In this document: piece by piece, positions 12,548 through 60,230 of the stretch
Layout of the letters: each line of letters starts with the position of its first letter
How positions within the stretch are numbered: the first letter of the stretch is position 1
Virus record (IMG/VR): IMGVR_UViG_3300035682_000015
From: a virus
Lineage: Duplodnaviria; Heunggongvirae; Uroviricota; Caudoviricetes
Direction: 5' to 3' (one strand)
DNA length: 64,000 bases
The notes under the pieces: model-generated
Database searches by the model: none
What the model saw: only the letters and a program-made list of their open reading frames with translations
Told to the model about the DNA's origin: nothing
Made by a program: the position numbers and the translations under genes

Positions 12548-12745
12548 ATGAAGTTAATAATTACAGAGTCACAATATAAAACCATCAACGAGATGATTAA
12601 TCTTGATATTAAAGTTGGGGACACCATTATGGGTGGAAAGTTTAAGAATAAAAAGGTTGTTGTGAAGACAATCGGTAAGAATGAAAAGGGTGATATTACT
12701 ATAAATGGTAAGCCGTTGTTACGTTTTAGAATTATAGAAAAATGA
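12548..12745 (+). CDS. MKIIITESQ-leader family protein
   Basis: N-terminus MKLIITESQYKTINEM. Confidence 0.5.
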   Translation: MKLIITESQYKTINEMINLDIKVGDTIMGGKFKNKKVVVKTIGKNEKGDITINGKPLLRFRIIEK

Positions 12746-13071
12746 GAATAATAATTAAAGAAAATAAAAGAGATAAAATAGCCAAGAAGATATTAACTGA
12801 TGAGTTCTCCGGTATGTATGAAGATGTTAATTATATAACAGATTCAAGGGGGGAACACAAAGCAATTGAATATCGTAATGGTAATGGTGTTATTATGATT
12901 TATGGTGATAGAAATGAATCTTTATATATTTGTGAAGATATTACAAATCCCCTTAGAGTATTAACATATACGCCACAACAACTTAAAAATGTTATTGGTG
13001 AATGGTTCTCAGAGTTTTTTGAGTTACCCGTTGAAAATGTTCATCACGTAAATAAAGAGAAATTAAACTAA
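12742..13071 (+). CDS. hypothetical protein
   Basis: ATGA overlap; MRIIIKENKRDKIAKKIL. Confidence 0.5.
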   Translation: MRIIIKENKRDKIAKKILTDEFSGMYEDVNYITDSRGEHKAIEYRNGNGVIMIYGDRNESLYICEDITNPLRVLTYTPQQLKNVIGEWFSEFFELPVENVHHVNKEKLN

Positions 13072-13072
13072 T

Positions 13073-13390
13073 ATGAAAATTTTAATAACAGAAAGTAAAT
13101 TAGAGAGAGTTGCCATTAATTGGTTGAACGATAACTATGGTAATTTGGAACCATATGAAACTAAAGAGTTTCCTGGGTTAATTCTTTACTTAGAAGGTAG
13201 AACAGTAATTATTGAATATAATAAAAAAAATAAAGATGTTTATGTGAATTATGAAAAGATTTGGAAGTTTTTTAAATCCTATTTTAGTTTGGAAAATGAA
13301 CAAATTCAACATTTAATAAAGATGTGGATAGAGGAGAATTACAAATTAAAAGTAAAATCTGCGTCTTATAATAATGTGTATTTACCATAA
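13073..13390 (+). CDS. family-C paralog (MKIxITESK...WLxxNYG...YNKKNG)
   Basis: Paralogous to 20176, 20554 and 49405 genes. Confidence 0.55.
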   Translation: MKILITESKLERVAINWLNDNYGNLEPYETKEFPGLILYLEGRTVIIEYNKKNKDVYVNYEKIWKFFKSYFSLENEQIQHLIKMWIEENYKLKVKSASYNNVYLP

Positions 13391-13391
13391 T

Positions 13392-13790
13392 ATGATAGAG
13401 TTAATAAAAAGAGTATTAAGAGAAGAAATAGAGACCAAGACAAAAGTTTTGGTCTATATCTATTTTTGTGACTACAAAGATGAGAACTTTAGGGAGTATG
13501 TTGATAGATTTAGAAATATGGATATTGATTTTTGGGTTAAACCGAGCAAAGGGCATCACAAAGGGTTCTCCATTCAATCTATATTAGATACTGATGATAT
13601 GTATGAGGCCAAACACATTTCAAGGGACATTTCCCGTGAATTTGATGATGATATATTAATTGTGTTATCAAAACAAAGAGTAACCAATATAGAACCTGTG
13701 GGTGAGAATAATGAAGATGTGTTTGTTAAACCCGGAAGAAAGTTTGATGAGTTGGTTTATAAAGGTAAGAAAGGGATTTATGTAATATGA
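13392..13790 (+). CDS. hypothetical protein
   Basis: Start at MIELIKRVLREE after upstream stop. Confidence 0.5.
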   Translation: MIELIKRVLREEIETKTKVLVYIYFCDYKDENFREYVDRFRNMDIDFWVKPSKGHHKGFSIQSILDTDDMYEAKHISRDISREFDDDILIVLSKQRVTNIEPVGENNEDVFVKPGRKFDELVYKGKKGIYVI

Positions 13791-14368
13791 AAGATTTAAT
13801 TAAAAAGATATTGAGAGAGGAAGTTCAGAAGAGATTTACAAAATCTAATCAAACTTTTGAAAAAATTATTATTAGACATATGGAGAATTTAATCTCTAAT
13901 ACAACAAGAGTTGTTGTGCCACCGGAAGATAATTATGGTAATTATGGGGAAGAATGGTGTAAAGATGGTAAAGCTGTTATTGATGTTAGATATAATTTTT
14001 TTGGTGAAGAAAAATTTGGTTCAGGTAGTTTATTTATTGCGGAAGATGAGGTTAATTTCTTATTCAAAATGTTACGGGTTAGAAAGTCTTATATTCTTAA
14101 TGTAATAACGGAATGGTATGATGATAAATATGCAACAAAGTTTGGACAAGAAACCAATCATCCGGAGTTTGAGATTGATAAAACAATTGAAACAGACAGT
14201 CCTCGTAAATGTTATCAGATGGTTAATACTGATAATTTGAGTAGAGATATGATGATTGATTATATTGATACTCAAACTTCATATAGTACTGAGGAAATAG
14301 AAGAAATGAATGATGAGGAATTAATAAAAACATACATAAGAGTTTATAATATCCAATTAAATAAGTAA
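13787..14368 (+). CDS. hypothetical protein
   Basis: ATGA overlap; MKDLIKKILREE leader. Confidence 0.5.
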   Translation: MKDLIKKILREEVQKRFTKSNQTFEKIIIRHMENLISNTTRVVVPPEDNYGNYGEEWCKDGKAVIDVRYNFFGEEKFGSGSLFIAEDEVNFLFKMLRVRKSYILNVITEWYDDKYATKFGQETNHPEFEIDKTIETDSPRKCYQMVNTDNLSRDMMIDYIDTQTSYSTEEIEEMNDEELIKTYIRVYNIQLNK

Positions 14369-14436
14369 TGAAATATATTACCAATCACCACAAGATAAAC
14401 CCCAATATACTAGGTTTATCCTACCACAAAAGGTAA

Positions 14437-14733
14437 TTACGACATATTCTTCAACACAGCTTCCAACATGGAGATAGATATCTTATCTTGTTTGGATTTC
14501 ACAGATTTTTTATTAAGATATTCCAACGACTCAATCATCTCTTGTTTCTTATCCATAGGTTTAAAAGGTGAGTTTGGAACGTTGATAGGTTGTTTAACAA
14601 CTTCCATAGGTTTATCCTTATAGATGATAGTGGTGGATTCACCAATCATTGCCATAATATCCTGAGCAGTTTTCTCCACTATAGATTTAACTAATTTCTT
14701 ATATTCCTTCTTGGTTAATTTTATTTTTTTCAT
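14437..14733 (-). CDS. hypothetical protein
   Basis: Real ATG at 14733 (MKKIKLTKKEYKK); track start 14763 is TTG. Confidence 0.5.
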   Translation of the reverse strand: MKKIKLTKKEYKKLVKSIVEKTAQDIMAMIGESTTIIYKDKPMEVVKQPINVPNSPFKPMDKKQEMIESLEYLNKKSVKSKQDKISISMLEAVLKNMS

Positions 14734-14734
14734 A

Positions 14735-14899
14735 TTATTTAAACATTGGTGTAAAGTATTCAATTAGATATTTTGCGTAATTAGTTAAAAACTCATTACC
14801 ATCAAAGATGAATGTTTCTTTAGAATTATTCACAGCGTTTTGATATTCGTTTTTTAATCTTGAGAATGTTGGTAAATCAACTGACATAGTATTTGACAT
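14735..14899 (-). CDS. hypothetical small protein
   Basis: 54 aa, 1 nt upstream of next gene; rc TATCTTTG at 14923-14930. Confidence 0.35.
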   Translation of the reverse strand: MSNTMSVDLPTFSRLKNEYQNAVNNSKETFIFDGNEFLTNYAKYLIEYFTPMFK

Positions 14900-14997
14900 A
14901 ACGGTTTATTTTAATTAGAGTACAAAGATACACTAATATTTTAACTTACCAAATTATTTGACAAAATAATTCATTATGTCTATTATTGTGAGGTAAA

Positions 14998-15573
14998 ATG
15001 ATTGATATGAAATTAAACGAACAATTAACAAAAATTAAATCAATGATGGGAATCAATGAAAACAAACAATCTTATCCATACTCTTGTGCTATGTTATACT
15101 TTAACCCGGATTCGGTTACAGAACTACATAGTAAAATAAACCCGGAGGACCTATACACAGAAGAAGATGGGTTTGGTTTAGAACCGGAATCACACTGTAC
15201 GTTACTATACGGATTACACGATAATGAGGTTGATATTGAAGATATTATTAACGTAATAAACAAATACTCTTACACAAATTGTAAGGCACATAACCTATCT
15301 TGTTTTAACAATCCAAAGTATGATGTGTTAAAATATGATATAATGGGGGATAATCTAAGTGAAACTAATGAGGAGTTAAAACAATTCCCATTCACAAGTG
15401 ATTACCCGGACTATCACGCCCATATGACCGTGGCATATCTTAAACCGGGTAAAGGTAATCATTATATTAATATGTTGGGTGATGAATACAAAGAAATGGT
15501 AATGACACCTCAACACGCTGTGTATTCAAGAACTGATGGTACCAAACACAAAATACCGGTTAGGTTTACATAA
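14998..15573 (+). CDS. 2H phosphoesterase superfamily protein (LigT/Acb1-like)
   Basis: Two H-x-T-x motifs 76 aa apart: HCTLLYGL (aa 66) and HMTVAYL (aa 142), matching HxTLxFxG / HxT[LV]A of LigT-type 2H enzymes. Confidence 0.55.
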   Translation: MIDMKLNEQLTKIKSMMGINENKQSYPYSCAMLYFNPDSVTELHSKINPEDLYTEEDGFGLEPESHCTLLYGLHDNEVDIEDIINVINKYSYTNCKAHNLSCFNNPKYDVLKYDIMGDNLSETNEELKQFPFTSDYPDYHAHMTVAYLKPGKGNHYINMLGDEYKEMVMTPQHAVYSRTDGTKHKIPVRFT

Positions 15574-15646
15574 CAATCTAACTCAGATTTACAATTCGGG
15601 TAATACCTGAGGAGTAGGAGTGACGGTCAGGAAAGACTGACAACTT

Positions 15647-15799
15647 GGTCAAGTGGCGAAAATGGTAGACGATAAGCACAGTGCGTGTGTGAGAGTTGTG
15701 ATGTAAGCTGGGGTGTACAACCCGGAGATTCCAATTATGGATTCAGTGGCGAACGCAAATAGCCATTAACTCGTACAGGTTCGAATCCTGTCTTGACCA
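15647..15799 (+). tRNA. tRNA gene with ~65-nt insertion (candidate intron); type-II (Leu-like) D-arm; anticodon unassigned
   Basis: Perfect 7-bp acceptor stem GGTCAAG/CTTGACC. T-arm ACAGG-TTCGAAT-CCTGT. D-loop GGCGAAAATGGTAGACG. Discriminator A. 153 nt total. Confidence 0.55.
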
Positions 15800-15839
15800 C
15801 AAATATATAAAAAAAGTTTGGATATATAAAAAATAGTAT

Positions 15840-15847
15840 TATCTTTG
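15840..15847 (+). promoter_or_regulatory. -7 promoter element TATCTTTG (copy 1 of duplicated 47-nt promoter unit)
   Basis: Identical unit at 16246-16292. Confidence 0.5.
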
Positions 15848-15874
15848 TGCTCAATATTAATTAAAAAAAAGACT

Positions 15875-16252: not shown

Positions 16253-16262
16253 AAAATAGTAT

Positions 16263-16270
16263 TATCTTTG
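16263..16270 (+). promoter_or_regulatory. -7 promoter element TATCTTTG (copy 2)
   Basis: Duplicate of 15823-15870. Confidence 0.5.
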
Positions 16271-16299
16271 TGCTCAATATTAATTAAAAAAAGAAAATT

Positions 16300-22373: not shown

Positions 22374-22955
22374 TAATCCGGTATGGTGTTCATTTGTAGT
22401 TATATGTTCATTTGCAATGAACATTCTCATATTTTGAACTTAAACGGGATGTTATGGTAAGTTATGTTTTGTATCAGTGTAGTCAGTTTAAAACTCACAT
22501 GAGTGATACAAATAATAACTTTTAATGGTATTTTGTGTCTCTGTGGTGTCCCATATATAAACAATTTAGTTCGTTGATTAGTGGTCAATTATATACCCCT
22601 GACGGGTCGTTGAAGTAATCCTTCTAACACCTAACGGTTCCAACGCGTCACTAACCATTACTTACATAATTTACTGGGAAACGTATATAGTAAAATAATT
22701 GGTCCTGAGAGTACCTACAGAGGGGAAAAAGTGACTCTACACTATACTTAGACACAATAATGGTGGGAAAAAGTGGTAACAAAGGGTAATGTCCTACACC
22801 TAAAAGGGGGAAAAAGGATTATCCCCAATGAAGAAAGAGACTGACATTTTGTCAAAATCAAGAATTTTAACATAAAAAGTTATTAACAATTCCCCCTGAC
22901 AGTGTTGATAAGTCAATTGTTGATAACTATATTTAGAAAAAGTTATTAACAATAT

Positions 22956-23303
22956 ATGTACTTAGAATCATTTACCTCAAAGTATTCCGGTGAACCTTCA
23001 TACTTATCGGGTTTTACCCCCACTGTCACTATGTCACTTCCTTCGGTTGGTCTATCGACAGATAACACTTATATCGTGGATTACGGTATAGGAGAGTGTG
23101 TTTATTCCTATCAGAGGATGGGAAAAAGAATCAAGCAGGATGTCCTTCAACTAATCAAATGTGATATGTGGAAGGTTATAACTGTAATTAACGAAGAGTC
23201 CCCACTGAATGAGGGGGATTACAAGGACCTGAATATGGAAATCCGGAACCATTCTCTACAGTGTGTTACTGATTTTATAAATCGTAGGGGTCTTTCTGAC
23301 TAA
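22956..23303 (+). CDS. hypothetical protein of island
   Basis: 115 aa ORF starting right after repeat set. Confidence 0.3.
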   Translation: MYLESFTSKYSGEPSYLSGFTPTVTMSLPSVGLSTDNTYIVDYGIGECVYSYQRMGKRIKQDVLQLIKCDMWKVITVINEESPLNEGDYKDLNMEIRNHSLQCVTDFINRRGLSD

Positions 23304-23684
23304 TATGTTTTCTCCACCACTTAGAGAGGATACTATCCGGAGATAGAGTGGGGATAAGAAGTGCCTCAATGATAACAAAACATAACAGGATAAAGGTCAG
23401 ACATAGTAGAACAATAATAATAATCATAGTTTAATTATTTAAGGGTTACCGGTGGTTATCACCGTCAATCCCCAAAGATATGAATAAATTATGACATTAT
23501 CAAACAATCCCCCATTTATTTGAGAATAGTTATTAACCTATAGGATAAAGTACTGAGGGTGAGATGATTATTCGTAATGAAATCCCCATTCTACTGAGAA
23601 TACTAATGATTCCGGGGATAATCCCACCCCCAAGATGGGGGAAATTAAACGATTCTTAATGAAACCCCCAATCTACTGAGAATA

Positions 23685-24380
23685 ATGGGGGAATTAAAAA
23701 TAAAGTACTTACTCCGATTATCATATTCTCAAAGAATGGGGATTTATATTAAATATAAAGCAGGTTGGAGTCTACTCTTCCACCACTCGGTACGCCCCCA
23801 TCCGGACTATCTACCGGTAATGTGGTACAAAGATATAACAAATAATCTACACCACCAAATAAAATGGGGAAAGATTATTAATTATTATTTCAATATATTT
23901 ATATGTATGATAGAGACAAAACCTAAAGATATAACCCCAATCAAAAGAAAGGGGATAGATATGACCGTTAAAGGTCTACAAAAGAAATACCCATTCATAA
24001 TAGGATATAAGGATGATACAACAACTCAATATATATCATTACACTACATTGATTTAATAATAGACCTCAACAAACTATCTGAGTATGCGGATGTCCCGGT
24101 TAACCCATATTGGGAATCATATGTACTTGCGAACCCCCAATACGAAAAAGTATATGCCTTATGGTCCTATTTAGAATTCCCCAATAATGATTTGTTTGGG
24201 GATATTAAAGACCATCCCGGATATATAATACAACAGAAGGTAGTAGAGGACCTCGAATTTATATACTCACACCTACCATCTCAACTAACACTACACTATA
24301 CTCCCAAATCAACTTTCTTCCCCGATGACCCACCAACTTATACCGTGAGATTAAAACCTAACGCATATCTAATGAGGTAA
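23685..24380 (+). CDS. hypothetical protein of island (candidate initiator; start uncertain)
   Basis: 231 aa ORF; stop is immediately followed by 3x23-bp iterons. Confidence 0.35.
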   Translation: MGELKIKYLLRLSYSQRMGIYIKYKAGWSLLFHHSVRPHPDYLPVMWYKDITNNLHHQIKWGKIINYYFNIFICMIETKPKDITPIKRKGIDMTVKGLQKKYPFIIGYKDDTTTQYISLHYIDLIIDLNKLSEYADVPVNPYWESYVLANPQYEKVYALWSYLEFPNNDLFGDIKDHPGYIIQQKVVEDLEFIYSHLPSQLTLHYTPKSTFFPDDPPTYTVRLKPNAYLMR

Positions 24381-24449
24381 CACTCCCGTTGGTTGGTCTC
24401 TGACACTCCCGTTGGTTGGTCTCTGACACTCCCGTTGGTTGGTCTCTGA
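24381..24449 (+). repeat. 3 perfect tandem copies of 23-bp unit CACTCCCGTTGGTTGGTCTCTGA
   Basis: Read directly: copies at 24381, 24404, 24427. Confidence 0.9.
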
Positions 24450-24558
24450 CACCATGTCATGTTAATAACTTTGTTGATAACTTTTTACCTTAACTTATTA
24501 ACAATGTCATACTGTCATGTTGATAAGTTTTTTTGGATATGTCAAATATACCCCCACT

Positions 24559-24589
24559 CCCCCCATCTTTTACCGGGGGGTTTTTTTTT
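24559..24589 (+). terminator. intrinsic terminator
   Basis: CCCCCC-loop-GGGGGG + T9. Confidence 0.5.
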
Positions 24590-24846
24590 AACCCCTCCCC
24601 TAAACACCCCCCATACCCCCTCCCTATCCCCCGTGGGGGTATCCCCCCTCCCCTCCCTCCCCCTTATATAACCCAAATAGGGGGGATAATCCTCTCGATG
24701 ACGTGTATGGGGGAAAAAAACTTTATATGAAAATCGTTTTAAAATTTCTAAAAAAATTTTTGGAAAAAATCCCCCGGTATAAATGGGGTGGTCAAATAGT
24801 GAAAAAAAATTTTTGGAAAAAAATTGATTGTAAAAGGGGAATATCT

Positions 24847-24854
24847 TATCTTTG
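24847..24854 (+). promoter_or_regulatory. -7 promoter element TATCTTTG
   Basis: upstream of 24913. Confidence 0.45.
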
Positions 24855-24912
24855 TTGACTATGGAAAAGATATATTCAATTTGTGGGAATAAAAAACCGA
24901 AAGAAAAGTAAT

Positions 24913-27546: not shown

Positions 27547-27690
27547 ATGAGAGATAGAATAAAAAAATGGTGGAATAGGACTTGGTCCAATTGGGAGGTT
27601 GATACTAAGAGTAAGTGGTATTTTTATATTATACTTAAGAGAACATCCAACGATGGTTTAATCCAATTTAAAAAAATAAAAACTGGGGTA
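27547..27690 (+). CDS. small basic protein
   Basis: 47 aa; ATGA overlap with next. Confidence 0.3.
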
Positions 27691-28217
27691 TGAAAAACAT
27701 TTATTTAATTCCGACAGATAAACGGACTCGATTACATTATGACCACACCGGTTTATTTTTATCTCACCATTATCAGGTAAGTAAGGAGATTAATTCAATT
27801 GTTGAAGGCAGATATATCTACATTACATCGGATGAATACATTGGGTTGAATTGGTATATTGATGGTGGCTGGGTAAGAAAGGGTGTTATTGATGATAAGG
27901 ATTATTGGTCTGTTAGAAAGGATTATAAAAAAATCGTTATAACCAATGACCCCAAGTTAATTAAGGATGGCGTTCAGGATATTGGGGACGGTGTGATGGA
28001 TTGGTTCATTGAGAACCCCACCTGTGAATACTTCAATATTGAACAGTACAATTCATATGGGATTGATAATTGGAAGTACTTGGTAACTCTTCCAACGGAT
28101 AAGATTGACTTTGAAAAGGAGTTATCTAAATGGGGTTACAATAAGGGTAATTCAATTGACGTTGAGATTTTGGTTAATGAGATACTTCCAAAATTATTTG
28201 AACAATTTAAAAAATAA
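27690..28217 (+). CDS. modular paralog 1 (N-module MKNIYLIPTDK + diverged central module)
   Basis: Tandem array member. Confidence 0.55.
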   Translation: MKNIYLIPTDKRTRLHYDHTGLFLSHHYQVSKEINSIVEGRYIYITSDEYIGLNWYIDGGWVRKGVIDDKDYWSVRKDYKKIVITNDPKLIKDGVQDIGDGVMDWFIENPTCEYFNIEQYNSYGIDNWKYLVTLPTDKIDFEKELSKWGYNKGNSIDVEILVNEILPKLFEQFKK

Positions 28218-28225
28218 ATAAGATT

Positions 28226-29071
28226 ATGAAAAACATACACGTATTAGGAACAGATAAACCAACTTTTTTACATAAAAGTACAAAAACAGGTATTTTAATG
28301 AAATCATCCGCTTGTATTAATGATATGAAACAAGCACAAGGAATGAACATTTACATCACTTCTGATGAAATAGTTACAAAATATTCAAATGGTTTGTATT
28401 TTATTGATATTTACACAAACACAAGACATATATTTTCACCGATTTATATTAATAAAGATACTATTGCTTTTGGAAAATTTCACACATATATGAATGATGG
28501 TGGTATGTGTAAAAAAATCATCCTAACAACAGACCAAGACTTAATCAAAAATGGTGTACAAGCTATTGATGATGAGTTTTTAGAATGGTTTGTTAAAAAT
28601 CCAAGTTGTGAAAAAATTAGAACTTATTTGACTAAAGTTTTACAAAGTGGTAATCCAACATTTTATAAAGATGATTACAGAATAATCATTCCAAAAGAAG
28701 AACATAAATGTACTTGTGAAAATGGACACCCATATAACAATCTTTGTTGTAAAATACATGGTAAATTCATAAAAGAAGAACCTAAACAAAAATATAAAGA
28801 CTGTAATGGCAATTTAACAGATTGTACTTGTATAGAAGATACTATTGAAATGAAACAAGAAACACTTGAAGAAGTAAGAGATTTATCATATTATAAAGCT
28901 AATGCTGAAGAAGATTATTTAGCAGTTCCAATAAGCGTATTGAGATATATTTCTCAATTAGAGCAACAAGAAAGAAGTTATAGTGAGGAAGATTTAGAAG
29001 TAGCTTATTTTGAAGGTAGAGAAGGATTATATTCATTCAATGATTGGTTTGAACAATTTAAAAAGAAATAA
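28226..29071 (+). CDS. modular paralog 2 (N + central + Cys-rich insert + C-module)
   Basis: MKNIHVLGTDK ... ILTTDQDLIKNGVQAIDDEFLEWFVKNPSCE ... QQERSYSEED..WFEQFKKK. Confidence 0.55.
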   Translation: MKNIHVLGTDKPTFLHKSTKTGILMKSSACINDMKQAQGMNIYITSDEIVTKYSNGLYFIDIYTNTRHIFSPIYINKDTIAFGKFHTYMNDGGMCKKIILTTDQDLIKNGVQAIDDEFLEWFVKNPSCEKIRTYLTKVLQSGNPTFYKDDYRIIIPKEEHKCTCENGHPYNNLCCKIHGKFIKEEPKQKYKDCNGNLTDCTCIEDTIEMKQETLEEVRDLSYYKANAEEDYLAVPISVLRYISQLEQQERSYSEEDLEVAYFEGREGLYSFNDWFEQFKKK

Positions 29072-29075
29072 AATT

Positions 29076-30035
29076 ATGAAAAACATACACATTTTACCAA
29101 CAGATAAACCAAGTAGGTTATGGATGACTAAATTAGGTAATCTAACAAGATGCCACGATATAAAACCTATTAAAGAAGCATTAGGAAATAATGTAAATAA
29201 CTACATCACTTCTGATGAAGAAATTAAAGAAGGAAATTGGTTTGTAAAACCTAAATATTCAAAAGCAATTAAAATTGGATATGAGATTAGTCAAGCTGAT
29301 TCATCTTTTTTTGGAGGGTATGGTTATGATTGGACTGATTGTAAAAAAATCATCTTAACAACAGACCAAGACTTAATCAAAGACGGTGTACAAGCTATTG
29401 ATGATGAGTTTTTAGAATGGTTTGTTAAAAATCCAAGTTGTGAGTTTGTTGAATTGAATAGAAACTATAATCGGGGTAATGGAAAATATTATTACAAAAT
29501 CATCATTCCAAAAGAAGAAGCTAAACAATTATTTACAGACTACCCAATTATTGAATTAGGTGATGACGAATTTAAAGAAGCACCAATAAGAGAATGTGAA
29601 TTACTTTCTTTTGATGATGATGATAATAAGTACTGCTATGTAAAAGTAGGAGGTATTGAAAAAGAAATTAAACGTTGTTATATATACCCACAAAAAGGTA
29701 GATGCGGTGACGTTAATTGTGTTTCAATTAAAGAAATAAAAGAGTTGTTAAAAGAAGAACCTAAACAAGATGCTATTGAATATTCATTAAATGCTTTTAA
29801 AGTTCCAAAAGAATATTTTGGAAAACAAGAAACACTTGGAGAAGCATTATCTGAACATATAAAAGATATAAAATATCCTACTCTAATACAATGTGCTAAA
29901 TTTGGTGCTAAATGGCAACAACAGAGAAGTTATAGTGAGGAAGAAGTTTTAGACTTATTACAAGATTTTGCTAATGACTTATCTGATAATGTAATTAATA
30001 TTAAATTTTGGTTTGAAAAATTTAAAAACAAATAA
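29076..30035 (+). CDS. modular paralog 3
   Basis: MKNIHILPTDKPSRL; central module 97% nt-identical to paralog 2. Confidence 0.55.
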   Translation: MKNIHILPTDKPSRLWMTKLGNLTRCHDIKPIKEALGNNVNNYITSDEEIKEGNWFVKPKYSKAIKIGYEISQADSSFFGGYGYDWTDCKKIILTTDQDLIKDGVQAIDDEFLEWFVKNPSCEFVELNRNYNRGNGKYYYKIIIPKEEAKQLFTDYPIIELGDDEFKEAPIRECELLSFDDDDNKYCYVKVGGIEKEIKRCYIYPQKGRCGDVNCVSIKEIKELLKEEPKQDAIEYSLNAFKVPKEYFGKQETLGEALSEHIKDIKYPTLIQCAKFGAKWQQQRSYSEEEVLDLLQDFANDLSDNVINIKFWFEKFKNK

Positions 30036-30036
30036 G

Positions 30037-30261
30037 ATGAAAGAAACACTTGAAGAAGCTGCTGAAAGAAGATTTCCAAGTAAAACGGAAATGTACGATG
30101 TTTTTATTGAAGGCTCTAAATGGCAACAAGAACAAGACAAGAATAAGTATAGTGAGGAAGATATGCACAATTTAATGGATGAATACCAAAATTGGTTATT
30201 TAATACTAATACCGTAGTATTAACTTTTAGAGAATGGTTTGAACAATTTAAAAACAAATAA
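30037..30261 (+). CDS. stand-alone C-module protein
   Basis: KWQQEQDKNKYSEEDM...WFEQFKNK. Confidence 0.45.
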   Translation: MKETLEEAAERRFPSKTEMYDVFIEGSKWQQEQDKNKYSEEDMHNLMDEYQNWLFNTNTVVLTFREWFEQFKNK

Positions 30262-30265
30262 AATT

Positions 30266-31276
30266 ATGAAAAACGTACACGTACTACCAACAGATAAAAC
30301 GAGTAGGTTAGTTTTAGATGTAAACAATAATTTAGCATTAGCCTTTAATAAATCTATTGAAGAAAATGCGCTGTATAAAAGAACCATCTACATCACTAAT
30401 GATGAAGAAATTAAAGAAAATACCAATGTAAAAGACAAATGGGTAATTTCTGAATATGGTTTTGTTGTAAAAGCAGATAGGATTGAAAACAATTACCTTA
30501 TACACTCAACTGGAGGTTCTAATTTTTTACATCATTATAAATTTATAATTATGACAACAGACCCTCAACTTATTCAAGATGGTGTACAACCTATTGATGA
30601 TGAGTTTTTAGAATTTATAGTTAAGAATCCAAGTTGTGAGTGGGTTGAGGTTGACAAAAATTGGAATTACCCATTAGATAAAAGTTGGGAATATAAATTA
30701 AGAATCATTCCAAAAGAAGAACCTAAACAACTATTTACAAAAGGAGATAAAGTATTGTTTACAGGAAAAATGTTAGATGAAAATGTTGTTGATAAAGTAG
30801 TAACAGTATTTTATACATTAGGTAGAGGAGAGATAGATGATATGTCAGATATAATGGATGAATACACTCACGTTTATAGAGTTTGGAATAAAGATTTAAA
30901 ACACACTTCAAAAGAAGAACCATTAAGTTTTGAAGAATTTAGAAAAATTGCTTCTAAAGAATTACTTGAAAAATTTGATACTGATTGTTTAGAATATTCA
31001 GAAGATGGAGATTTTGATAATTACTTTTACGCTAATTGTAAATATTGGGAAAGTAAACTAAAAGAAGAACCTAAACAAGAATTTGGTTATACTACTAAGA
31101 TGGGTGTTGAGGTTAAGGATGAGATGGTTAGACCACTTATGGTTCCAAAGAAATATTTTGGTGAGGTGGAACATCCGGATTATAGTTCAGTGTTTGATTT
31201 TTTATCCGATAAGGATTACTTAACAGACAAACGAGAAGTTATTGAGAAAGAATTTAAAGAATATTTAAAAAAATAA
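30266..31276 (+). CDS. modular paralog 4
   Basis: MKNVHVLPTDKTSRL; PKEEPKQ linkers x2. Confidence 0.55.
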   Translation: MKNVHVLPTDKTSRLVLDVNNNLALAFNKSIEENALYKRTIYITNDEEIKENTNVKDKWVISEYGFVVKADRIENNYLIHSTGGSNFLHHYKFIIMTTDPQLIQDGVQPIDDEFLEFIVKNPSCEWVEVDKNWNYPLDKSWEYKLRIIPKEEPKQLFTKGDKVLFTGKMLDENVVDKVVTVFYTLGRGEIDDMSDIMDEYTHVYRVWNKDLKHTSKEEPLSFEEFRKIASKELLEKFDTDCLEYSEDGDFDNYFYANCKYWESKLKEEPKQEFGYTTKMGVEVKDEMVRPLMVPKKYFGEVEHPDYSSVFDFLSDKDYLTDKREVIEKEFKEYLKK

Positions 31277-33277: not shown

Positions 33278-33291
33278 GGATATTTATTTAT

Positions 33292-33609
33292 ATGGGTAAG
33301 AAGAAACAAATCGTGTTTAAGTATTTTGATATAATATATTCCAGTTATAAGAAACATGGGAGACGGTCAATAAATATGAAATCACCTCACGTTCTATTTG
33401 AATATATGGATGATAATGGTCGTACCGCTTTTGATTATGACACAGAAAGAGAATCAATACAATTTGATTATGGTGATTTTTACACCGCCCAAAAAATGTT
33501 TGGGGTTTCTATACCTGATTTGGTGGATATCTGTAAAGAATATGTTGCCAATAAATTTGATATACCTAAAGCAGCCAATTCAAGTTTTCTTCCTAAAAGA
33601 TTAAATTAA
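33292..33609 (+). CDS. family-D paralog (xVFKYFD...)
   Basis: Paralogous to 35799 and 37192 genes; preceded by TGGGGGATATTTATTTATATG. Confidence 0.5.
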   Translation: MGKKKQIVFKYFDIIYSSYKKHGRRSINMKSPHVLFEYMDDNGRTAFDYDTERESIQFDYGDFYTAQKMFGVSIPDLVDICKEYVANKFDIPKAANSSFLPKRLN

Positions 33610-38909: not shown

Positions 38910-38941
38910 ATTAACCCCATCCTAATCGGTGGGGTTTTTTG
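38910..38941. terminator. bidirectional intrinsic terminator
   Basis: CCCCATC-loop-GGTGGGG with A-run/T-run flanks; overlaps stop of minus gene. Confidence 0.65.
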
Positions 38942-39944
38942 TTCCATATTTAATTATGATTTCAGTTGTTTCTTTTTGTCTTGAACCACTAATATAAGTT
39001 CTGGATATTTTAACACCTTCATCTATAACCTCATCAATTTGAGGACCCCACTTAATATATATGAGATTGGTTTTTGGGTCGGTATATCCGGCTGCCACAG
39101 TTTCTTTAACACCATTCTCAATCACATCATCAATCATTTTGGGAACACTATTGGTTTCATTTTCTTCCAACCAATCAAGAACACCAACAAGGTCACCATC
39201 TTCACCGGGTGTTTTTGTTTCTTTAACACCATTTTTAATCACACCAGCAATTCTTCCTTTGTGGTGATATACATCATCGTGAGTTTCTATTACACCCTTG
39301 TCAATCACTTTATCAACTATATCTCCACCTACATATTGACGTGGGTGAGAAGTTTTTACACCATTTCCGAGAACCTCATCAATGTCTCCTGTATATTCAC
39401 GAGATTGTAAGGGTGAAATTATTTTAACACCATTTTGTAGGACATCTTCAGCTAAAGTAGAACCACCTACAAAGGCAAAAATGGTTTCCTTCACACCATT
39501 TTCAAGAGTATCATCAACTGATAAGATTCTTTTATCACCCCAATAATTGGTGTTCTTTACCCCATTTTCAATAGTATCCTCAACCGACCAATCCGTTTTC
39601 ATATGAGCCATTTTAGTTTTTTTCACACCATTTTCAAGAGTGTCCTCAAATTGTTGTTTTCTATCCCGGGCATCTCTAAAGAGTGTAACATAAGTTAACT
39701 CTTTATTTATAATATTATCTTCCACCCATTTGGTGATGAGGTGTTGGTTCTGAACGCAATCCAACGAAGCGTAAGCAAAAATACTTTTGAAGAAGTTGTA
39801 ATTATACCATAGAGTTTTATTCTCAGTTAGTTCAATCATCCATTGTTTGGACTCAGTAAAGATTAACCAAGTGGAACCATTATGGGTATAAGTGTCCACC
39901 CCTTTAGTAAATTCATTAATTAATTTATTTATAATTCTTTCCAT
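38922..39944 (-). CDS. repeat protein with ~9 copies of D[TV][LI]ENGVK[EK]T unit
   Basis: Internal ~28-aa repeats read in translation. Confidence 0.6.
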   Translation of the reverse strand: MERIINKLINEFTKGVDTYTHNGSTWLIFTESKQWMIELTENKTLWYNYNFFKSIFAYASLDCVQNQHLITKWVEDNIINKELTYVTLFRDARDRKQQFEDTLENGVKKTKMAHMKTDWSVEDTIENGVKNTNYWGDKRILSVDDTLENGVKETIFAFVGGSTLAEDVLQNGVKIISPLQSREYTGDIDEVLGNGVKTSHPRQYVGGDIVDKVIDKGVIETHDDVYHHKGRIAGVIKNGVKETKTPGEDGDLVGVLDWLEENETNSVPKMIDDVIENGVKETVAAGYTDPKTNLIYIKWGPQIDEVIDEGVKISRTYISGSRQKETTEIIIKYGTKNPTD

Positions 39945-45220: not shown

Positions 45221-45958
45221 TTATTTATTGTAAATTTCTTTTGAATAGTAATCTTCAAAACCTTCCATCATTTGACTGATTGAGGGACTATTTTCTAAAC
45301 CAATAATGTTATCAATTAATCCAATTTCTTTTGATTCTTCAGAGTTAAACCATTTATCTCGTCTTGAAATTTCATAAATCTCATCAAAAGTTTTATCACA
45401 ATTTTGAGATAATATTTTGAATAACATATAGTTATATTTTTCGGCTTCCATATGACTTATACGAGTATCTTGGATATTCCCCGATGTCCCATAACTTACA
45501 AAATGAGTCATAACTTTAGAAAAAATTAATGAATTTCTTTTACCTTTAGCTCCCGAAGACAATAATATTGAACCCATAGATGCACACATTCCAAGATTAG
45601 TTGTTGAAACATCTGCTTTAACATAATTCATAACATCTCTTATACCAAGTCCCATCATCACTGACCCACCAGGACTATTTAAGTAAAGACTAATATCTTT
45701 TTTATCTGTGGTGTCTAAAAAAATTAATTGTGCTTGGATAATATCACCCATTCTATCATCTACAGGTCCTGATGCCCAAACAATTCTATCAAGAATTAAT
45801 CTTGAAAAAATATCCATCTGAGTTGCTCTCATTTCTCGTTCTTCCAAAATATACGGGGTTAATGAATTTTCCATATGTTTTTGGTAGTAATCTAAATTAA
45901 GTCCTGAAATACCTCTGTCGCTCATTGCGAACTTTTTAAAATCGTTTCCGTAATTCAT
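45221..45958 (-). CDS. clpP: ClpP-family serine protease
   Basis: Ser-His-Asp triad context: GMCASMG, KVMTHFVSYGTSGNIQD, RRDKWFNSEESKEIGLID. Confidence 0.8.
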   Translation of the reverse strand: MNYGNDFKKFAMSDRGISGLNLDYYQKHMENSLTPYILEEREMRATQMDIFSRLILDRIVWASGPVDDRMGDIIQAQLIFLDTTDKKDISLYLNSPGGSVMMGLGIRDVMNYVKADVSTTNLGMCASMGSILLSSGAKGKRNSLIFSKVMTHFVSYGTSGNIQDTRISHMEAEKYNYMLFKILSQNCDKTFDEIYEISRRDKWFNSEESKEIGLIDNIIGLENSPSISQMMEGFEDYYSKEIYNK

Positions 45959-55293: not shown

Positions 55294-55295
55294 AA

Positions 55296-56366: not shown

Positions 56367-56369
56367 AAA

Positions 56370-56392: not shown

Positions 56393-56394
56393 AA

Positions 56395-56823
56395 TTATTC
56401 AGAAATTTCAATAACTTCTAAATCAAATATAAGATTTTTACCGGCTAACGGATGATTTGCGTCTAATGTGACAGTTTCATCATTCACGGCAACGACTTGA
56501 ACATTAACGGGCCCTTGAGGTCCCATACCTTGTAAAGATTCACCAACTTGAATTCCTTCAGGAACATTAGTTTTTGGAACTTCATTGATAAATTCAGGTT
56601 TTGGCTCACCGTAAGCGTCTTCCACAGAAATCTCAACAGTTTTTTTATCACCTTCAGACATATCAATTAATCCTGATTCAAATCCTTTAATAAGTTGTCC
56701 TAAACCTAGTTCAACTTCTAATGGTTCTCTACCTTCAGCGATTGATGTATCAAAAATTGTTCCGTCTTCTAATCTACCTGTGTAATGTACTTTTACTTTA
56801 CTTGTTGTTTCTACTTTTTTCAT
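56395..56823 (-). CDS. FKBP-type peptidyl-prolyl cis-trans isomerase (SlyD/FkpB-like)
   Basis: VKVHYTGRLEDGTIFDTS ... IKGFESGLIDMSEGDKKTVEI ... YGEPKPEF. Confidence 0.8.
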   Translation of the reverse strand: MKKVETTSKVKVHYTGRLEDGTIFDTSIAEGREPLEVELGLGQLIKGFESGLIDMSEGDKKTVEISVEDAYGEPKPEFINEVPKTNVPEGIQVGESLQGMGPQGPVNVQVVAVNDETVTLDANHPLAGKNLIFDLEVIEISE

Positions 56824-56943
56824 AAAATTAAATGTTTTAGATAATTATAAGATTAATAAAAATAAAAATCAAACCATATTGATTAAAAAACAAAATATTA
56901 CTATAATTATTAGTAATTAACCCCCTAAAACTTTTATATTATT

Positions 56944-57138
56944 ATGTCAAACGAAGAACACGTTGAGGAAATGTACTATTTCGCACATATTTCAGGAGTA
57001 TTCAGAGAATTCTCAAATGAAGTAACTAAAATTAGAAATAATGACCCAAAAATTAATTTTTCTACGGTCGTCCAGGAAGTGTTTGAAAGTTTTACGACAG
57101 AAGGTTTAATTCAATCTGATTTACATTTATTTATTTAA
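56944..57138 (+). CDS. hypothetical small protein
   Basis: 64 aa. Confidence 0.4.
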   Translation: MSNEEHVEEMYYFAHISGVFREFSNEVTKIRNNDPKINFSTVVQEVFESFTTEGLIQSDLHLFI

Positions 57139-57400
57139 CATCGATTGAGTGACTTATGTTAATATTTTCTCTAAGTCCCGTATATTTCCAACTCTCCATC
57201 ACTAAAAGAATTAATCCATCAGGGAAAAAATCTTCACATAATTCAGGGTCGGTTGTAAGTAATTTACAATCGATTGTGAAACATTTATTATTGGTTGAGT
57301 ATTTGATAAAATTAATAACAACTTGGCTACCTTCACCAAATAAGGTTTCCATCTCATCTTTTCGTAAATTGTTTATGTAAAATTGAACTGACCTTTTCAT
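57131..57400 (-). CDS. hypothetical protein
   Basis: ATG MKRSVQFY; track start is TTG. Confidence 0.45.
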   Translation of the reverse strand: MKRSVQFYINNLRKDEMETLFGEGSQVVINFIKYSTNNKCFTIDCKLLTTDPELCEDFFPDGLILLVMESWKYTGLRENINISHSIDVK

Positions 57401-57486
57401 ATTGTTAAATATAAGATTAAATAATGGTAATTTCAATTGAAAATTTGATTTAACCAAATTAATGATTTATTCTTAAAGAAAAAACT

Positions 57487-57747
57487 ATGTATTTAAATGT
57501 AATTTTAACAATTTTCGTGATTGTCCAAGTGGTGACAATAGTATTAATTTATAAATGGTGGAAAAAATATGGAAGAAAACTTTTCACATCATTTACTGAA
57601 ATAAAAAAAAGTTTTCCATCTCAAATGATGAATTCTGTTAGTAAAGATGGTATTAAAAACCCTAATTTATTCGCAAATATCCCGGACATGAGTGAAATGA
57701 TGAAACAATTAGAGTCTATGACTAAAAATATGGGTAAATTCAAATAA
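57487..57747 (+). CDS. membrane-anchored small protein
   Basis: N-terminal TM. Confidence 0.45.
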   Translation: MYLNVILTIFVIVQVVTIVLIYKWWKKYGRKLFTSFTEIKKSFPSQMMNSVSKDGIKNPNLFANIPDMSEMMKQLESMTKNMGKFK

Positions 57748-57959
57748 TGGACGTATATCAAATTCACCAGGAGTTCAATTGGGTTAATAAGGTCTTATTT
57801 TCATCCCAAACTGATAAACATATAGAATGTTGTATTAATTTATTCAATAATTTTATGAATAAATGGAGTTTTGAGATGACTCAAGATTTAAAAATAAATT
57901 TTAATCGAGATTTTAATGAAAATTATTTGTCTCATAAAGAAAAATTACTATCTTTGTAA
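57747..57959 (+). CDS. hypothetical small protein
   Basis: TAATG coupling. Confidence 0.4.
   Translation: MDVYQIHQEFNWVNKVLFSSQTDKHIECCINLFNNFMNKWSFEMTQDLKINFNRDFNENYLSHKEKLLSL
57949..57956 (+). promoter_or_regulatory. -7 promoter element TATCTTTG
   Basis: 16 nt upstream of ATG 57973. Confidence 0.45.
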
Positions 57960-57972
57960 AAAAATATTAGAA

Positions 57973-58620
57973 ATGGAACCAGAAAAAGACATATTCGACG
58001 AATGGGCGGAAAAATCTGAAAAAAAATCGTGGATTGTACGAAAAATACAGTTTATTCCGTTGTGGTGGAATCACGATGGTAGATATTACCACAAATACAT
58101 CAAACAAGGTGTGAAGAACCTAATTTATTGGTTCCCAATTATATGGAAAGACCGAAATTGGGATAGTCATTATATCTTTGAGATTATGAAACATAAATTA
58201 TCAGGACAAGCTGAATATATTGGTCGTAGAGACTTACATACTCGAGCTCAAGAAGATGTAAAAAGAATGAAATTGTGCGTAAAATTGATGGGGTTAGTTC
58301 AAGATGAATTTTATTCAGGCGAATACACTGACTATCATAATACAAAACATTGGTTTGAACCCGTACCGGGAAAAGAAGGGTATAGTTCTTGGGAATCACG
58401 ATTATTAGAAGAAAACTTCGATGACTACTTTAAAAAATATCCACGAATTTATAAAAGAGTCTTAAATGGTGAAGGTATTTTTTCATTAGAAGACCACGAT
58501 AACGTCAGTACCGATAAAAAACAAAGAATTGCTATGAATATCGGACATATTAACCACGATAGAGCTCGAAAATTGTTATTCAATATTATGAGTGATAATA
58601 TTGAAAAATGGTGGGATTGA
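57973..58620 (+). CDS. hypothetical protein
   Basis: ATG MEPEKDIFDEW. Confidence 0.5.
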   Translation: MEPEKDIFDEWAEKSEKKSWIVRKIQFIPLWWNHDGRYYHKYIKQGVKNLIYWFPIIWKDRNWDSHYIFEIMKHKLSGQAEYIGRRDLHTRAQEDVKRMKLCVKLMGLVQDEFYSGEYTDYHNTKHWFEPVPGKEGYSSWESRLLEENFDDYFKKYPRIYKRVLNGEGIFSLEDHDNVSTDKKQRIAMNIGHINHDRARKLLFNIMSDNIEKWWD

Positions 58621-58925
58621 GCGAAAACACAAAAGGACATTCAACAAGACACAAGGCTAAAGAATGGCCACTAACAAATAAAGAAAATATGAAAAATTAT
58701 GTGGTAGGGATTTTAAGTTTGTTTGAAAACGACTTACAATTATTTAAAGTTGAAGCTGAAGACAAATATGAAGCTTTGAAAAAAGGAATGGTAGATTATA
58801 CTTCGGAAGAGTATAAACAAGATGAAATTGAATTTCAAAATGGTGACGTATGTCCCCCAAATTTTAAATCATTAACTGATTACTATTCCGTAGGAGAATT
58901 AATGACAAATGTTATAGAAATCTAA
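58608..58925 (+). CDS. hypothetical protein
   Basis: 105 aa. Confidence 0.45.
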   Translation: MVGLSENTKGHSTRHKAKEWPLTNKENMKNYVVGILSLFENDLQLFKVEAEDKYEALKKGMVDYTSEEYKQDEIEFQNGDVCPPNFKSLTDYYSVGELMTNVIEI

Positions 58926-58935
58926 GATTTTTTAT

Positions 58936-58943
58936 TATCTTTG
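58936..58943 (+). promoter_or_regulatory. -7 promoter element TATCTTTG
   Basis: 17 nt upstream of 58961. Confidence 0.45.
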
Positions 58944-58960
58944 TAAAAAAAATAGAAATT

Positions 58961-59653
58961 ATGAAAGTGACTTTTTTATCTGATACGCACAATAAACACA
59001 AACAAGTGACGGCCGATTTACCGGGAGGTGATTTGTTAGTTCATAGTGGAGACATTTCTTCTATGGGTTACGAACACGAAATCAGAGAGTTCTGTAAGTG
59101 GTTTAACAACATAGAAGGTTACACTCACAAGGTATTTATTGCTGGAAATCACGATTGGGGTTTTCAAGACAACGTTGATAAGGTAAAAGAAATATTAGAT
59201 TTCTACTCCGGAATCACATATCTTCAGGATAGTGAATTGGTAATCAAAGTTGGTGATGAGAGAGAAGTAAAAATCTATGGTAGCCCTTGGCAACCTTGGT
59301 TTTACGATTGGGCATTTAATTTACCTAAAAATGGTTTTGGGTTAGCTAGTAAATGGGAAGGAATCCCTGATGATACCGACATCTTACTTACCCACGGACC
59401 AGCATTTGGAATATTAGATACTGTTGATGGTAGAAGACACGACAACTTAGGTTGTGAGTTATTAGTTGAAAGATTAGAGAGATTGAATGTTAAACTTCAT
59501 AATGTTGGTCACATCCATACCGGATATGGTTACGTTAGAAAAGGAGATACCCACCACTTTAATTCTGCGGTGTTAGATGAGAGATACATCTACACTCAAA
59601 AACCAATGACTATTGATTGGAATCCGGAAACAAACGAAGTTGAGTTTGTGTAA
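58961..59653 (+). CDS. calcineurin-like metallophosphoesterase
   Basis: LSDTH, GDLLVHSGDI, GNHDWG, THGP, GHIHTGYG motifs. Confidence 0.65.
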   Translation: MKVTFLSDTHNKHKQVTADLPGGDLLVHSGDISSMGYEHEIREFCKWFNNIEGYTHKVFIAGNHDWGFQDNVDKVKEILDFYSGITYLQDSELVIKVGDEREVKIYGSPWQPWFYDWAFNLPKNGFGLASKWEGIPDDTDILLTHGPAFGILDTVDGRRHDNLGCELLVERLERLNVKLHNVGHIHTGYGYVRKGDTHHFNSAVLDERYIYTQKPMTIDWNPETNEVEFV

Positions 59654-59662
59654 TAATAAAAC

Positions 59663-59690
59663 CCCTACTGAAGAGTGGGGGTTTTATTTT
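59663..59690. terminator. bidirectional intrinsic terminator
   Basis: CCCCTACT-gaag-AGTGGGGG. Confidence 0.65.
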
Positions 59691-59992
59691 GTTTTAATTG
59701 ATATTGTGTTACCAGTGACGTATTCTATTGTATATTCGTCCGGTGTTAAATAATACGTTTTATAATAGTATTCTTGAATTAATTCTTTTAATTTTTCATC
59801 CATTTCATACCCATCATCAAATTTATGTCTTTGGTATTTTTGTATTAAATCATAAAATTCATCACTAACACATCTTGTTCTTTGTTTCCATTGGCCAACA
59901 ATTCGTTTATAAACGTGAAATGTTACTTGAGTTGGACAGGTTTCGTATCTACCAATTTTTTCATATTGGTCTTCAGTAATAATTATTTTCAT
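59684..59992 (-). CDS. MKIIITE-leader family protein
   Basis: MKIIITEDQYEKIGRYE. Confidence 0.5.
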   Translation of the reverse strand: MKIIITEDQYEKIGRYETCPTQVTFHVYKRIVGQWKQRTRCVSDEFYDLIQKYQRHKFDDGYEMDEKLKELIQEYYYKTYYLTPDEYTIEYVTGNTISIKTK

Positions 59993-59993
59993 A

Positions 59994-60230
59994 TTACAAA
60001 TTTTGCCAAACCACTTGTGGTATTTTAGTCCATACTTCGTCAGAACCTTCTTTTTTTAAGTGCGGTAATGTTTTGATATATTTATGAATAAATTTTGGAC
60101 CTCTTTCAATTCTTTTAATCATAGATTCCCGTCTATATAATTGGTCAGGTTTATAATGGTCTTGTTCAGAAATAACTCTTCTAATAATGTTGGTTAAATC
60201 TGATTCGGTTAATCTTACTATTTTTTTCAT
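59994..60230 (-). CDS. LTESDL-leader small protein
   Basis: MKKIVRLTESDLTNIIRRVISEQ. Confidence 0.5.
   Translation of the reverse strand: MKKIVRLTESDLTNIIRRVISEQDHYKPDQLYRRESMIKRIERGPKFIHKYIKTLPHLKKEGSDEVWTKIPQVVWQNL

Follow-up and report, generated by a model that had tools for sequence, protein, structure and literature searches.

Why should so many otherwise unrelated proteins encoded on one piece of phage DNA begin with the same few short peptides? The question is raised by a 64,000-nt stretch of a tailed phage (Caudoviricetes; IMG/VR record IMGVR_UViG_3300035682_000015), here called the window, in which at least 23 of ~135 genes, about one in six, start with a conserved N-terminal peptide of 7-22 residues. 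These peptides, or leaders, fall into five classes (A, A', B, C and D). The window is AT-rich (~30% GC) and densely packed with small genes, and its content includes homing endonucleases, thymidylate synthase, an Acb1-like gene and a Tad6-like gene. A first-pass annotation of this DNA had offered two ideas, that the leaders are capsid-targeting or ejection signals or that they are shared translation-initiation cassettes. The first is now the best supported, if circumstantially, by a gp21-family protease in the lineage, by Φ-x-E ends, by a promoter motif shared with head genes and by tags that are detached in AlphaFold models. The reading that we tentatively favour is that the leaders are N-terminal capsid-targeting propeptides, a functional counterpart of the capsid-targeting sequence (CTS) of phage T4, carried by a large packaged repertoire.

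Leader A is the most clear-cut class. The pattern M[KR][IVL]{3}[TK]E has 10 matches in the six-frame translation of the window, all opening ORFs of at least 65 aa and none elsewhere. With Ser also permitted at position 6 the pattern begins 11 of the 135 genes, against a mean of 0.004 (maximum 1) when residues 2-30 are shuffled and of 0.12 (maximum 2) under position-wise permutation. Among the IMG/VR leader-A proteins described below, positions outside the search pattern are also conserved, namely 10 (Y/L/F), 13 (L/I; 2.4 bits), 14 and 15 (E/N), which makes leader A ~15 residues long. All the leader A coordinates of the first-pass annotation hold, its minus-strand entries giving the low coordinate of the gene (a convention kept here), and gene 12742 (MRIIIKENK) is a new member. 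The A' genes that it named, 34320 and 59994(-), are borne out. Its leader B survives in 18097, 18594 and 19366 and, in degenerate form, in 14998 and 25474, whereas 13392, 13787 and 19807 make up a separate class C ([IL][IL][KR]x[IV]LREE), which recurs on other contigs; 55323(-), listed as a leader A variant, belongs instead to class D (ITEE[ED]KxxI). Hybrid leaders exist, MSKIIEITESQLKKIISRIINEQ combining A with A' and MKNIITEISRIRQMMGLLENE combining A with B, and because these bridge the classes the leaders look like a single superfamily with the core Φ-[TQ]-E-[SN]-x-Φ-x-[RK]-Φ-Φ.

The sequences behind the leaders had been described as mostly unrelated. By BLAST most of them are, but when 25 residues are removed a true paralog family of seven genes remains (12742, 13073, 20176(-), 20554(-), 41074, 49405 and 38922(-)). 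The first five of these are leader genes, and the last two are without the MKIIITE overhang. Leader proteins outside the 13073 family are mutually unrelated. The earlier statement that the leaders are not signal peptides is upheld: none has the hydrophobic core of ~7-15 residues found in Sec, lipoprotein or Tat signals, as leader A consists of three aliphatic residues followed by T-E-S-Q, and A' and B are charged helices. Composition also bears on the idea that the leaders are in-plane membrane-binding amphipathic helices bringing phage proteins to the inner membrane. A' does have a net positive charge and a hydrophobic face, and some cargo has predicted membrane segments, but membrane-binding helices are rarely conserved residue by residue, the hydrophobic part of leader A is just three residues long before T-E, and the cargo includes soluble enzymes. 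We regard a membrane role as very unlikely.

Is it the peptide or the DNA beneath it that is conserved? The codon-level comparison proposed in the first-pass annotation places the conservation in the peptide. Among 81 non-redundant leader-A genes, identical residues had identical codons at a frequency of 0.547, where the codon usage of these genes predicts 0.516. Leader Ser residues are encoded by TCA, TCT or AGT (both TCN and AGY codons), Thr by all four codons and Leu by TTA, CTA or CTT. Such randomised synonymous sites indicate selection on the peptide and refute, for the coding part, the proposal of a start cassette. The broader view that the leaders are a nucleic-acid feature, a cassette for translation initiation, leaderless mRNA or recombination with the peptide as a by-product, is scarcely credible. 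It can call on a mild excess of A-ending codons in the leaders, on upstream hairpin-promoter cassettes that are conserved as DNA, with the ATG 4 nt past the motif in a manner suggesting leaderless mRNAs, and on the shuffling of genes by T4-type phages via promoter-stem-loop cassettes (PMC2839356). Yet leader synonymous sites vary as much as those of the gene bodies, which largely refutes it, more than half of the leader genes lie inside runs and are preceded by unrelated sequence, and conserved internal copies of leaders exist. What remains of the cassette proposal is the upstream hairpin-promoter: its nucleotides are conserved as a cassette, which other genes have as well. The upstream sequence GATATTTAT, reported as shared, stands before the first gene of each run and not before every leader gene.

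The leaders are widespread. GenBank phages offered no near DNA match to the window, and no match in tblastn searches with the 13073 protein and consensus leader peptides. Many JGI and ENA metagenome contigs repeat window sequence; the Acb1-like gene has close homologs on contigs of 225 kb and 313 kb, and an IMG/VR relative of the window is 322 kb long. At least 118 stretches of IMG/VR, many of them from contigs 100-320 kb in length, matched a DNA pattern for MKIIITE[S][QK]. Without their leader, the ~200 leader-A ORFs among the matches listed form at least 71 clusters, of which 44 are singletons, and the Pfam domains of this cargo include sigma-70, phage lysozyme, SleB-type hydrolase, DHH, PG_binding_1 and DUF5872. 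The same loci also bear A' and B leaders. Profile searches with A' matched 1,422 of 5.8 billion proteins, none of them named and their tails unrelated, and 8,252 of 1.84 billion cluster representatives (50% identity); in 136 of the best 150 of the 8,252 clusters the match begins at residue 1. A' has two invariant residues, E9 and E22, its conservation ends directly past E22, and many of its tails are just 10-50 residues long. As judged from these distributions, the leaders are portable and essentially restricted to phages. That A' is a bacterial motif was considered and rejected, as MKKxI[RK]LTESDL matched only five contigs in 185,579 bacterial and archaeal species genomes. Separately, a 53-aa gene with a perfect A' leader (L130:10001-10162; L numbers denote individual loci examined here) sits in a small island in the chromosome of a Bacteroidota metagenome-assembled genome, between the housekeeping genes BamA, OmpH and PolA. 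A PDB profile search with A' returned only chance matches to the eL34 tail, and a literature search on the leader peptide strings found no paper mentioning them.

Structure predictions and homologs indicate that the leader is an add-on, detached from confidently folded domains. Acb1 in the PDB aligns to the 14998 protein only past leader B, and homologs of this protein have the full B leader, a 10-residue form (MIKLLDLLKE-EKQ) or none. In the AlphaFold2 model of the Acb1-like protein, the domain begins at residue 29 with pLDDT of ~90 or higher, while the leader helix (residues 3-17) is at ~50 and is followed by a disordered linker. In the 13073 family, residues 1-6 are unstructured and helix 7-22 is part of the confident fold; similarly, a DHH homolog in a 635-kb phage is without MKIIITE and keeps the following helix. 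Such observations also bear on the suggestion that the leaders are self-associating or otherwise functional N-terminal helices (for oligomerisation, condensates or nucleic-acid binding) that are retained in the mature protein and have no sorting role. The leaders do follow the pattern of an amphipathic, basic helix, proteins with two copies would be multivalent, and the helix after MKIIITE belongs to the domain in the 13073 and DHH families. Against this, the same 22 residues are near-invariant on thousands of unrelated tails, many of them of 10-50 residues, AlphaFold sets the leader B helix apart from the domain at low confidence, and the suggestion gives no reason for the restriction to one lineage or for the late-type promoters described below. 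It strikes us as improbable. The 14998 gene is itself one of two candidate anti-defence genes, the Acb1-like 2H phosphoesterase at 14998-15573 (+) and a Tad6-like protein at ~63361-63957 (-).

If the leaders were capsid-targeting propeptides, what head would receive them, and which protease would remove them? When T4 proteins were compared with the leader loci by tblastn, the gp20 portal and gp21 prohead protease were matched in L022, L095 and L125 (E 1e-16 to 1e-28 for the pair; the protease, for example L125:5764-6489, at ~33% identity to gp21, E 5e-16 to 5e-20) and the gp18 sheath in six further loci. L125 has two tandem leader-A genes between portal and protease, the slot of gp67/gp68 in T4, as well as a 13073-family homolog, and L022 has four consecutive leader-type genes after the protease, in the slot of T4 gp22. 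With the protease as query, more than 590 IMG/VR relatives were obtained, from which 80 head loci were kept (L145-L224); among the matches listed, 120 of 120 gp21 relatives were PF03420 Peptidase_S77. The order of the head module in the 80 loci is terminase, portal, p238, reverse-strand bS21, p150, protease, p70, scaffold and capsid protein, the last a gp23 homolog. The bS21 gene on the reverse strand (e.g. L171:5523-5708 (-)) identifies these protease-selected modules as belonging to the 'bS21 phages', which come from freshwater lakes, reach 331 kb, have Flavobacteriia and other Bacteroidetes as predicted hosts and transcribe the head region late (PMC9723584). The words 'promoter' and 'motif' are absent from that paper, and two uses of 'N-terminal' in it concern the bS21 helix. 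On our reading, the leader-bearing lineage is one of large freshwater phages (to ~300 kb or more), distantly T4-like and bS21-encoding, and it probably infects Flavobacteriia.

The window can be tied to this lineage indirectly, as 67 of the 118 leader-A loci among the matches listed have non-leader homologs in the window, and homologs of its DUF5872 protein (37474) lie directly past the capsid gene in 20 of the 80 head loci. We infer that its own genome encodes gp21. The only protease of the window is a cellular-type ClpP, which was rejected as a prohead protease, scoring 217 bits as cellular ClpP against 63 as head-maturation protease and having no portal or capsid gene nearby. Four T4 segments (~100 of 169 kb) compared with the window lineage matched only Seg/Mob homing endonucleases and EndoVII, and the head region of Microcystis phage Mel-JY01, the nearest isolate by capsid protein, contained no such leaders. 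Class C leaders ending in ..[IV][IL]KEA[TP] were also seen on proteins directly after the capsid gene or directly before terminase (L167:12822-13766, L171:11791-12507 and L158:1100-2470), those just after the capsid gene having a DUF5872-like C-terminus. Such class C proteins flanking capsid or terminase would be good first candidates for processed head proteins.

The promoters provide a second link to the head. A motif that we call class 2, [GTA][GAT]ATATTTAT, stands before 17 window genes, usually after a GGGGG-TTTTTT hairpin and ending 4 nt before the ATG; before homing-endonuclease genes 44320 and 53323 the spacing is 15-30 nt. The 4-nt spacing suggests leaderless mRNAs, and class-2 mRNAs would start at or next to the start codon if the motif is a -10-like element. 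Genes lacking leader peptides (10031, 35799, 38922(-), 41557 and 61515) have the class-1 motif, TAnnTTTG, 4 nt before the ATG. We take this motif to be the -7 element of Bacteroidetes sigma-A; the genes that it marks may be early and dependent on host sigma factor, and their mRNAs could be leaderless too. Within the window, leaders are found on 11 of the 17 class-2 genes and on 0 of the 14 class-1-only genes (Fisher p = 1.5e-4), the class-1 genes including 38922(-), the paralog with no leader. The remaining leader genes lie downstream in class-2 runs, except for 14998 and the possible leader genes 34806 and 62890. In the head loci, class 2 is present upstream of p238 (44/45), protease (66/78), scaffold (31/37), terminase (13/26) and portal (11/28), and class 1 upstream of neither p238, protease nor scaffold. 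Given both associations, the leader genes appear to be co-regulated with the head genes. The T4 late promoter TATAAATA was also considered, but its matches in excess fell on the wrong strand and were simply the TATTTATA core read as its reverse complement.

How capsid targeting might operate can be sketched by analogy with T4. Leader genes would be transcribed late, from a promoter type that also serves head genes. The short tag, either a flexible MKIIITE overhang or a 12-22-residue amphipathic helix plus linker, would dock an unrelated protein on the prohead scaffolding core, the gp21-family (Peptidase_S77) protease would cleave past the conserved Glu of a terminal Φ-x-E, and the mature protein would remain in the head and enter the next host alongside the DNA. 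The Acb1-like phosphodiesterase would be candidate cargo, as would the lysozymes, sigma factors and DHH phosphoesterases of related contigs. Core docking, cleavage, packaging and ejection are all steps that we infer. The Φ-x-E ends are IITE in leader A, LTE and [IV]xE22 in A', LQE and a Φ-x-E at ~residue 19 in B, and LREE in C; the T4 site is [LI]-x-E, with Glu at P1. For T4 we presume the cut sites to be MKTYQEFIAE|A, ..STITE|A, MELITELFDE|D, MAKINELLRE|S and MLKEQLIAE|A. The corresponding T4 N-termini (AF158101) are MKTYQEFIAE in IPII and IPIII, ..STITE in IPI, MELITELFDE in Alt, MAKINELLRE in gp24 and MLKEQLIAE in gp22. Every characterised gp21-family protease cuts after Glu, and T4 CTS and other propeptides are of 10-20 residues (PMC5694885); the internal proteins of T-even phages are diverse defence proteins with the CTS as their only common part (PMC3012670).

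The likeness to the T4 propeptides (those of IPI, IPII, IPIII, Alt and gp24) thus extends to a short, amphipathic N-terminal peptide with a Φ-x-E end on unrelated proteins, to a lineage with a gp21-family protease, T4-type portal, gp23-type capsid protein and sheath, and to cargo that includes defence-countering proteins encoded by genes scattered outside the head module. Unlike T4, the leaders here come in at least five classes, some 22 residues long, on dozens of genes per genome rather than about five; the cargo would include enzymes and sigma factors, and occasional copies are internal or C-terminal. The likeliest reading is a CTS-like system whose sequence classes are new and whose cargo set is far larger. 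The large phages phiKZ, 201phi2-1 and SPN3US also have a gp21-family protease that cuts after Glu, process many inner-head proteins and can have paralogs with identical N-termini (PMC5694885), but their propeptides are mostly longer than 100 residues and not common to unrelated families, and their cleavage motif is S/A/G-x-E. The hairpin-then-promoter arrangement before many small accessory genes resembles the PeSLs of T4-type phages (PMC2839356), matching the GGGGG-TTTTTT hairpin and GATATTTAT here, whereas PeSLs bear early promoters and the present motif is of late type and found before head genes; furthermore, such a cassette accounts for the upstream DNA only and not for the conserved peptide. 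Microcompartment and encapsulin peptides are also short amphipathic helices with a flexible linker, found at either end of unrelated cargo and docking inside a protein shell. We believe the N-terminus of PduP (..SELETLIRTILSEQ) to resemble A' (..SDLVRIVKRVISEQ). No microcompartment (BMC-H/BMC-P) or encapsulin shell genes occur among the window-wide Pfam matches, however, and the likely shell here would be the phage prohead. Ribbon-helix-helix N-termini, TonB boxes, ClpX N-motifs and double-glycine leaders were rejected because the downstream features that they require are absent; for the last, no leader ends in GG and the Pfam summary of the window contains no C39-peptidase ABC transporter.

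Several observations weigh against capsid targeting. The prohead protease that the first-pass annotation recommended looking for is present on related leader-bearing contigs, but no gp21 was found in the 64-kb window or its ~27 kb flanks, and the connection of the window to gp21 rests on common accessory genes, leader families and the promoter motif. When head modules were sampled regardless of leaders, leader-type N-termini were seen on 22 of 922 genes. In sequence the leaders are not significantly similar to the T4 CTS (MKTYQEFIAE), which they resemble in pattern only, and Φ-x-E is a low-information motif. About 17% of the genes of the region would be packaged, among them sigma factors, which to our knowledge are not packaged in any phage. 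The class-2 motif may mark all non-early genes, and the Acb1-like gene 14998, unlike its neighbours, has a sigma70-like promoter (TTGACA-17-TATTAT) with a GAGG ribosome-binding site in place of class 2. Finally, the top-scoring A' proteins have a second copy, internal or C-terminal, and such copies fit a general docking helix better than a strictly N-terminal propeptide.

A docking helix need not dock on a prohead. The leaders could instead recruit proteins to some other hub, as client or degron tags for phage DnaK or ClpP or as addresses for a replication or assembly factory, and thereby control folding, turnover or localisation in the infected cell. The window encodes a cellular-type ClpP and the DNA just outside it a bona fide DnaK, DnaK adjoins leader genes in four IMG/VR loci, the cargo includes cytoplasmic enzymes and sigma factors, and the internal and C-terminal A' copies are as expected of such tags. 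MKIIITE may also be likened to NRLLLTG, which we take to be a DnaK model peptide. The conserved polar residues of the leaders (T, E, S, D/Q and the invariant E9 and E22) would be unexpected for Hsp70 or Clp recognition, however, A' and B are without a DnaK-type hydrophobic stretch, and the link to head-gene promoters and the Φ-x-E ends would be left unexplained. We consider a non-prohead hub unlikely and retain capsid targeting as the preferred reading. As an observation in its own right, the proteostasis set is unusual for a phage, comprising the cellular-type ClpP, a full-length DnaK (971 bits with the NCBIfam DnaK model), an FKBP prolyl isomerase and a ferritin.

Coordinates of the leader genes, promoter motifs and related features. 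Positions are those of the window unless an L number is given.
Feature	Position	Strand	Remarks
Leader A gene (MKLIITESQYKTINE), 65 aa	12548..12745	+	First in run of five leader genes; class-2 promoter 4 nt upstream
Leader A variant gene (MRIIIKENKRDKI), 109 aa	12742..13071	+	13073 paralog family
Leader A gene (MKILITESKLERVAI), 105 aa	13073..13390	+	Paralog family; AlphaFold model
Leader C gene (MIELIKRVLREE), 132 aa	13392..13790	+	JGI gene call has same start
Leader C gene (MKDLIKKILREE), 193 aa	13787..14368	+	
Acb1-like 2H phosphoesterase, leader B (MIDMKLNEQLTKIKSMMGINE), 191 aa	14998..15573	+	Pfam Acb1 3.6e-6
Leader B gene (MNLQENIIRIQEMMGIISE), 165 aa	18097..18594	+	First in run of four leader genes; class-2 promoter 4 nt upstream
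Leader B gene (MNLQEDIQRIRQMMISEE), 256 aa	18594..19364	+	
Leader B gene (MNLQENIDRIQIMMGIITE), 144 aa	19366..19800	+	
Leader C gene (MDLRENIRTVLREE), 116 aa	19807..20157	+	
Leader A gene (MKIILTENRRNNIVI), 117 aa	20176..20529	-	Paralog family
Leader A gene (MKVIITESKIEKVAI), 107 aa	20554..20877	-	Paralog family; class-2 promoter 5 nt upstream
Leader B gene (MKNLLNEEIGKIKKMMGIS), 197 aa	25474..26067	+	Weak GNAT match
Leader A gene (MKLIITENKFKSLIN), 121 aa	33611..33976	+	In run headed by class-2 promoter at 33278
Leader A gene (MKILITERQSKLLME), 106 aa	33973..34293	+	
Leader A' gene (MKKIIKLTESDLRNIVMRIINE), 154 aa	34320..34784	+	
DUF5872 protein, leader A (MKLIITEKQEELLKD), 165 aa	37474..37971	+	Pfam match from residue 24
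Leader A gene (MKIIISESQYNKLFN), 123 aa	37968..38339	+	
Leader A gene (MKIIITESKLNQAVI), 128 aa	41074..41460	+	Paralog family
Leader A variant gene (MKIRIKESQYTKLNE), 372 aa	41860..42978	+	IMG/VR homologs start MKIIITESQ
Leader D gene (MSKKILITEEDKNHIKLLYNINE), 200 aa	55323..55925	-	
Leader A gene (MKIIITEDQYEKIGR), 102 aa	59684..59992	-	
Leader A' gene (MKKIVRLTESDLTNIIRRVISE), 78 aa	59994..60230	-	
Possible leader gene (MKLIESIKQIISEA, C-like), 534 aa	4482..6086	+	IMG/VR homolog L025 starts MKIIITESQ
Class-2 (late-type) motif AGATATTTAT	12534..12543	+	After GGGGG-TTTTT hairpin, 4 nt before ATG
Class-2 motif, further copies	4466, 9585, 18083, 25460, 33278, 34296, 37460, 41060, 41846, 44295, 53283, 55963	+	
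Class-2 motif, further copies	20883, 55943, 60235	-	
13073-family paralog without MKIIITE overhang	38922..39944	-	Natural control; class-1 (TAnnTTTG) promoter
Proteostasis-set genes	45221-45958 (-); L137:13565-15430; 56395-56823 (-); L139:11-607		

Other parts of the window have peculiarities of their own. Four tandem paralogs at 27690-31276 (+) open with a MKNIHVLPTDKPSRL-like sequence, an N-terminus that differs from the leaders, and one of them has a weak DUF5854 match. Three small proteins encoded at 33292, 35799 and 37192 (+) have a common K[IV]VFKY[FM]D motif near the N-terminus. The stretch from ~22400 to 24900 is gene-poor and slightly higher in GC, with only odd proline- or glycine-rich ORFs; a tRNA and Rfam search of the 22-26 kb stretch gave no match.

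Delivery of counter-defence proteins at the onset of infection is known for few model phages (T4 with IPI* and Alt, P1 with its Dar proteins). In a far-reaching extension of capsid targeting, which we regard as doubtful, the leader classes (A, A', B, C, D and hybrids) would together form an address code written in peptides, by which each genome loads a jumbo capsid with dozens of unrelated enzymes and regulators for injection with the DNA. Summed over the lineage, the families so tagged would number in the thousands, with Acb1-like anti-CBASS nucleases, sigma factors, lysozymes and DHH phosphoesterases among them, and the classes of the code might specify different head positions or the order of ejection. 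If true, no known repertoire of injected phage effectors would come near it in size. Should the tags be packaging signals, the injected proteome of an abundant group of freshwater Flavobacteriia phages, as yet uncultivated, could be predicted by a simple sequence rule, thousands of functionally unassigned proteins would become candidate injected effectors, and the short portable tags could be used for loading foreign proteins into capsids. Should they have some other role, a peptide conserved across more than 8,000 unrelated protein clusters would still point to a recognition system that has yet to be described.

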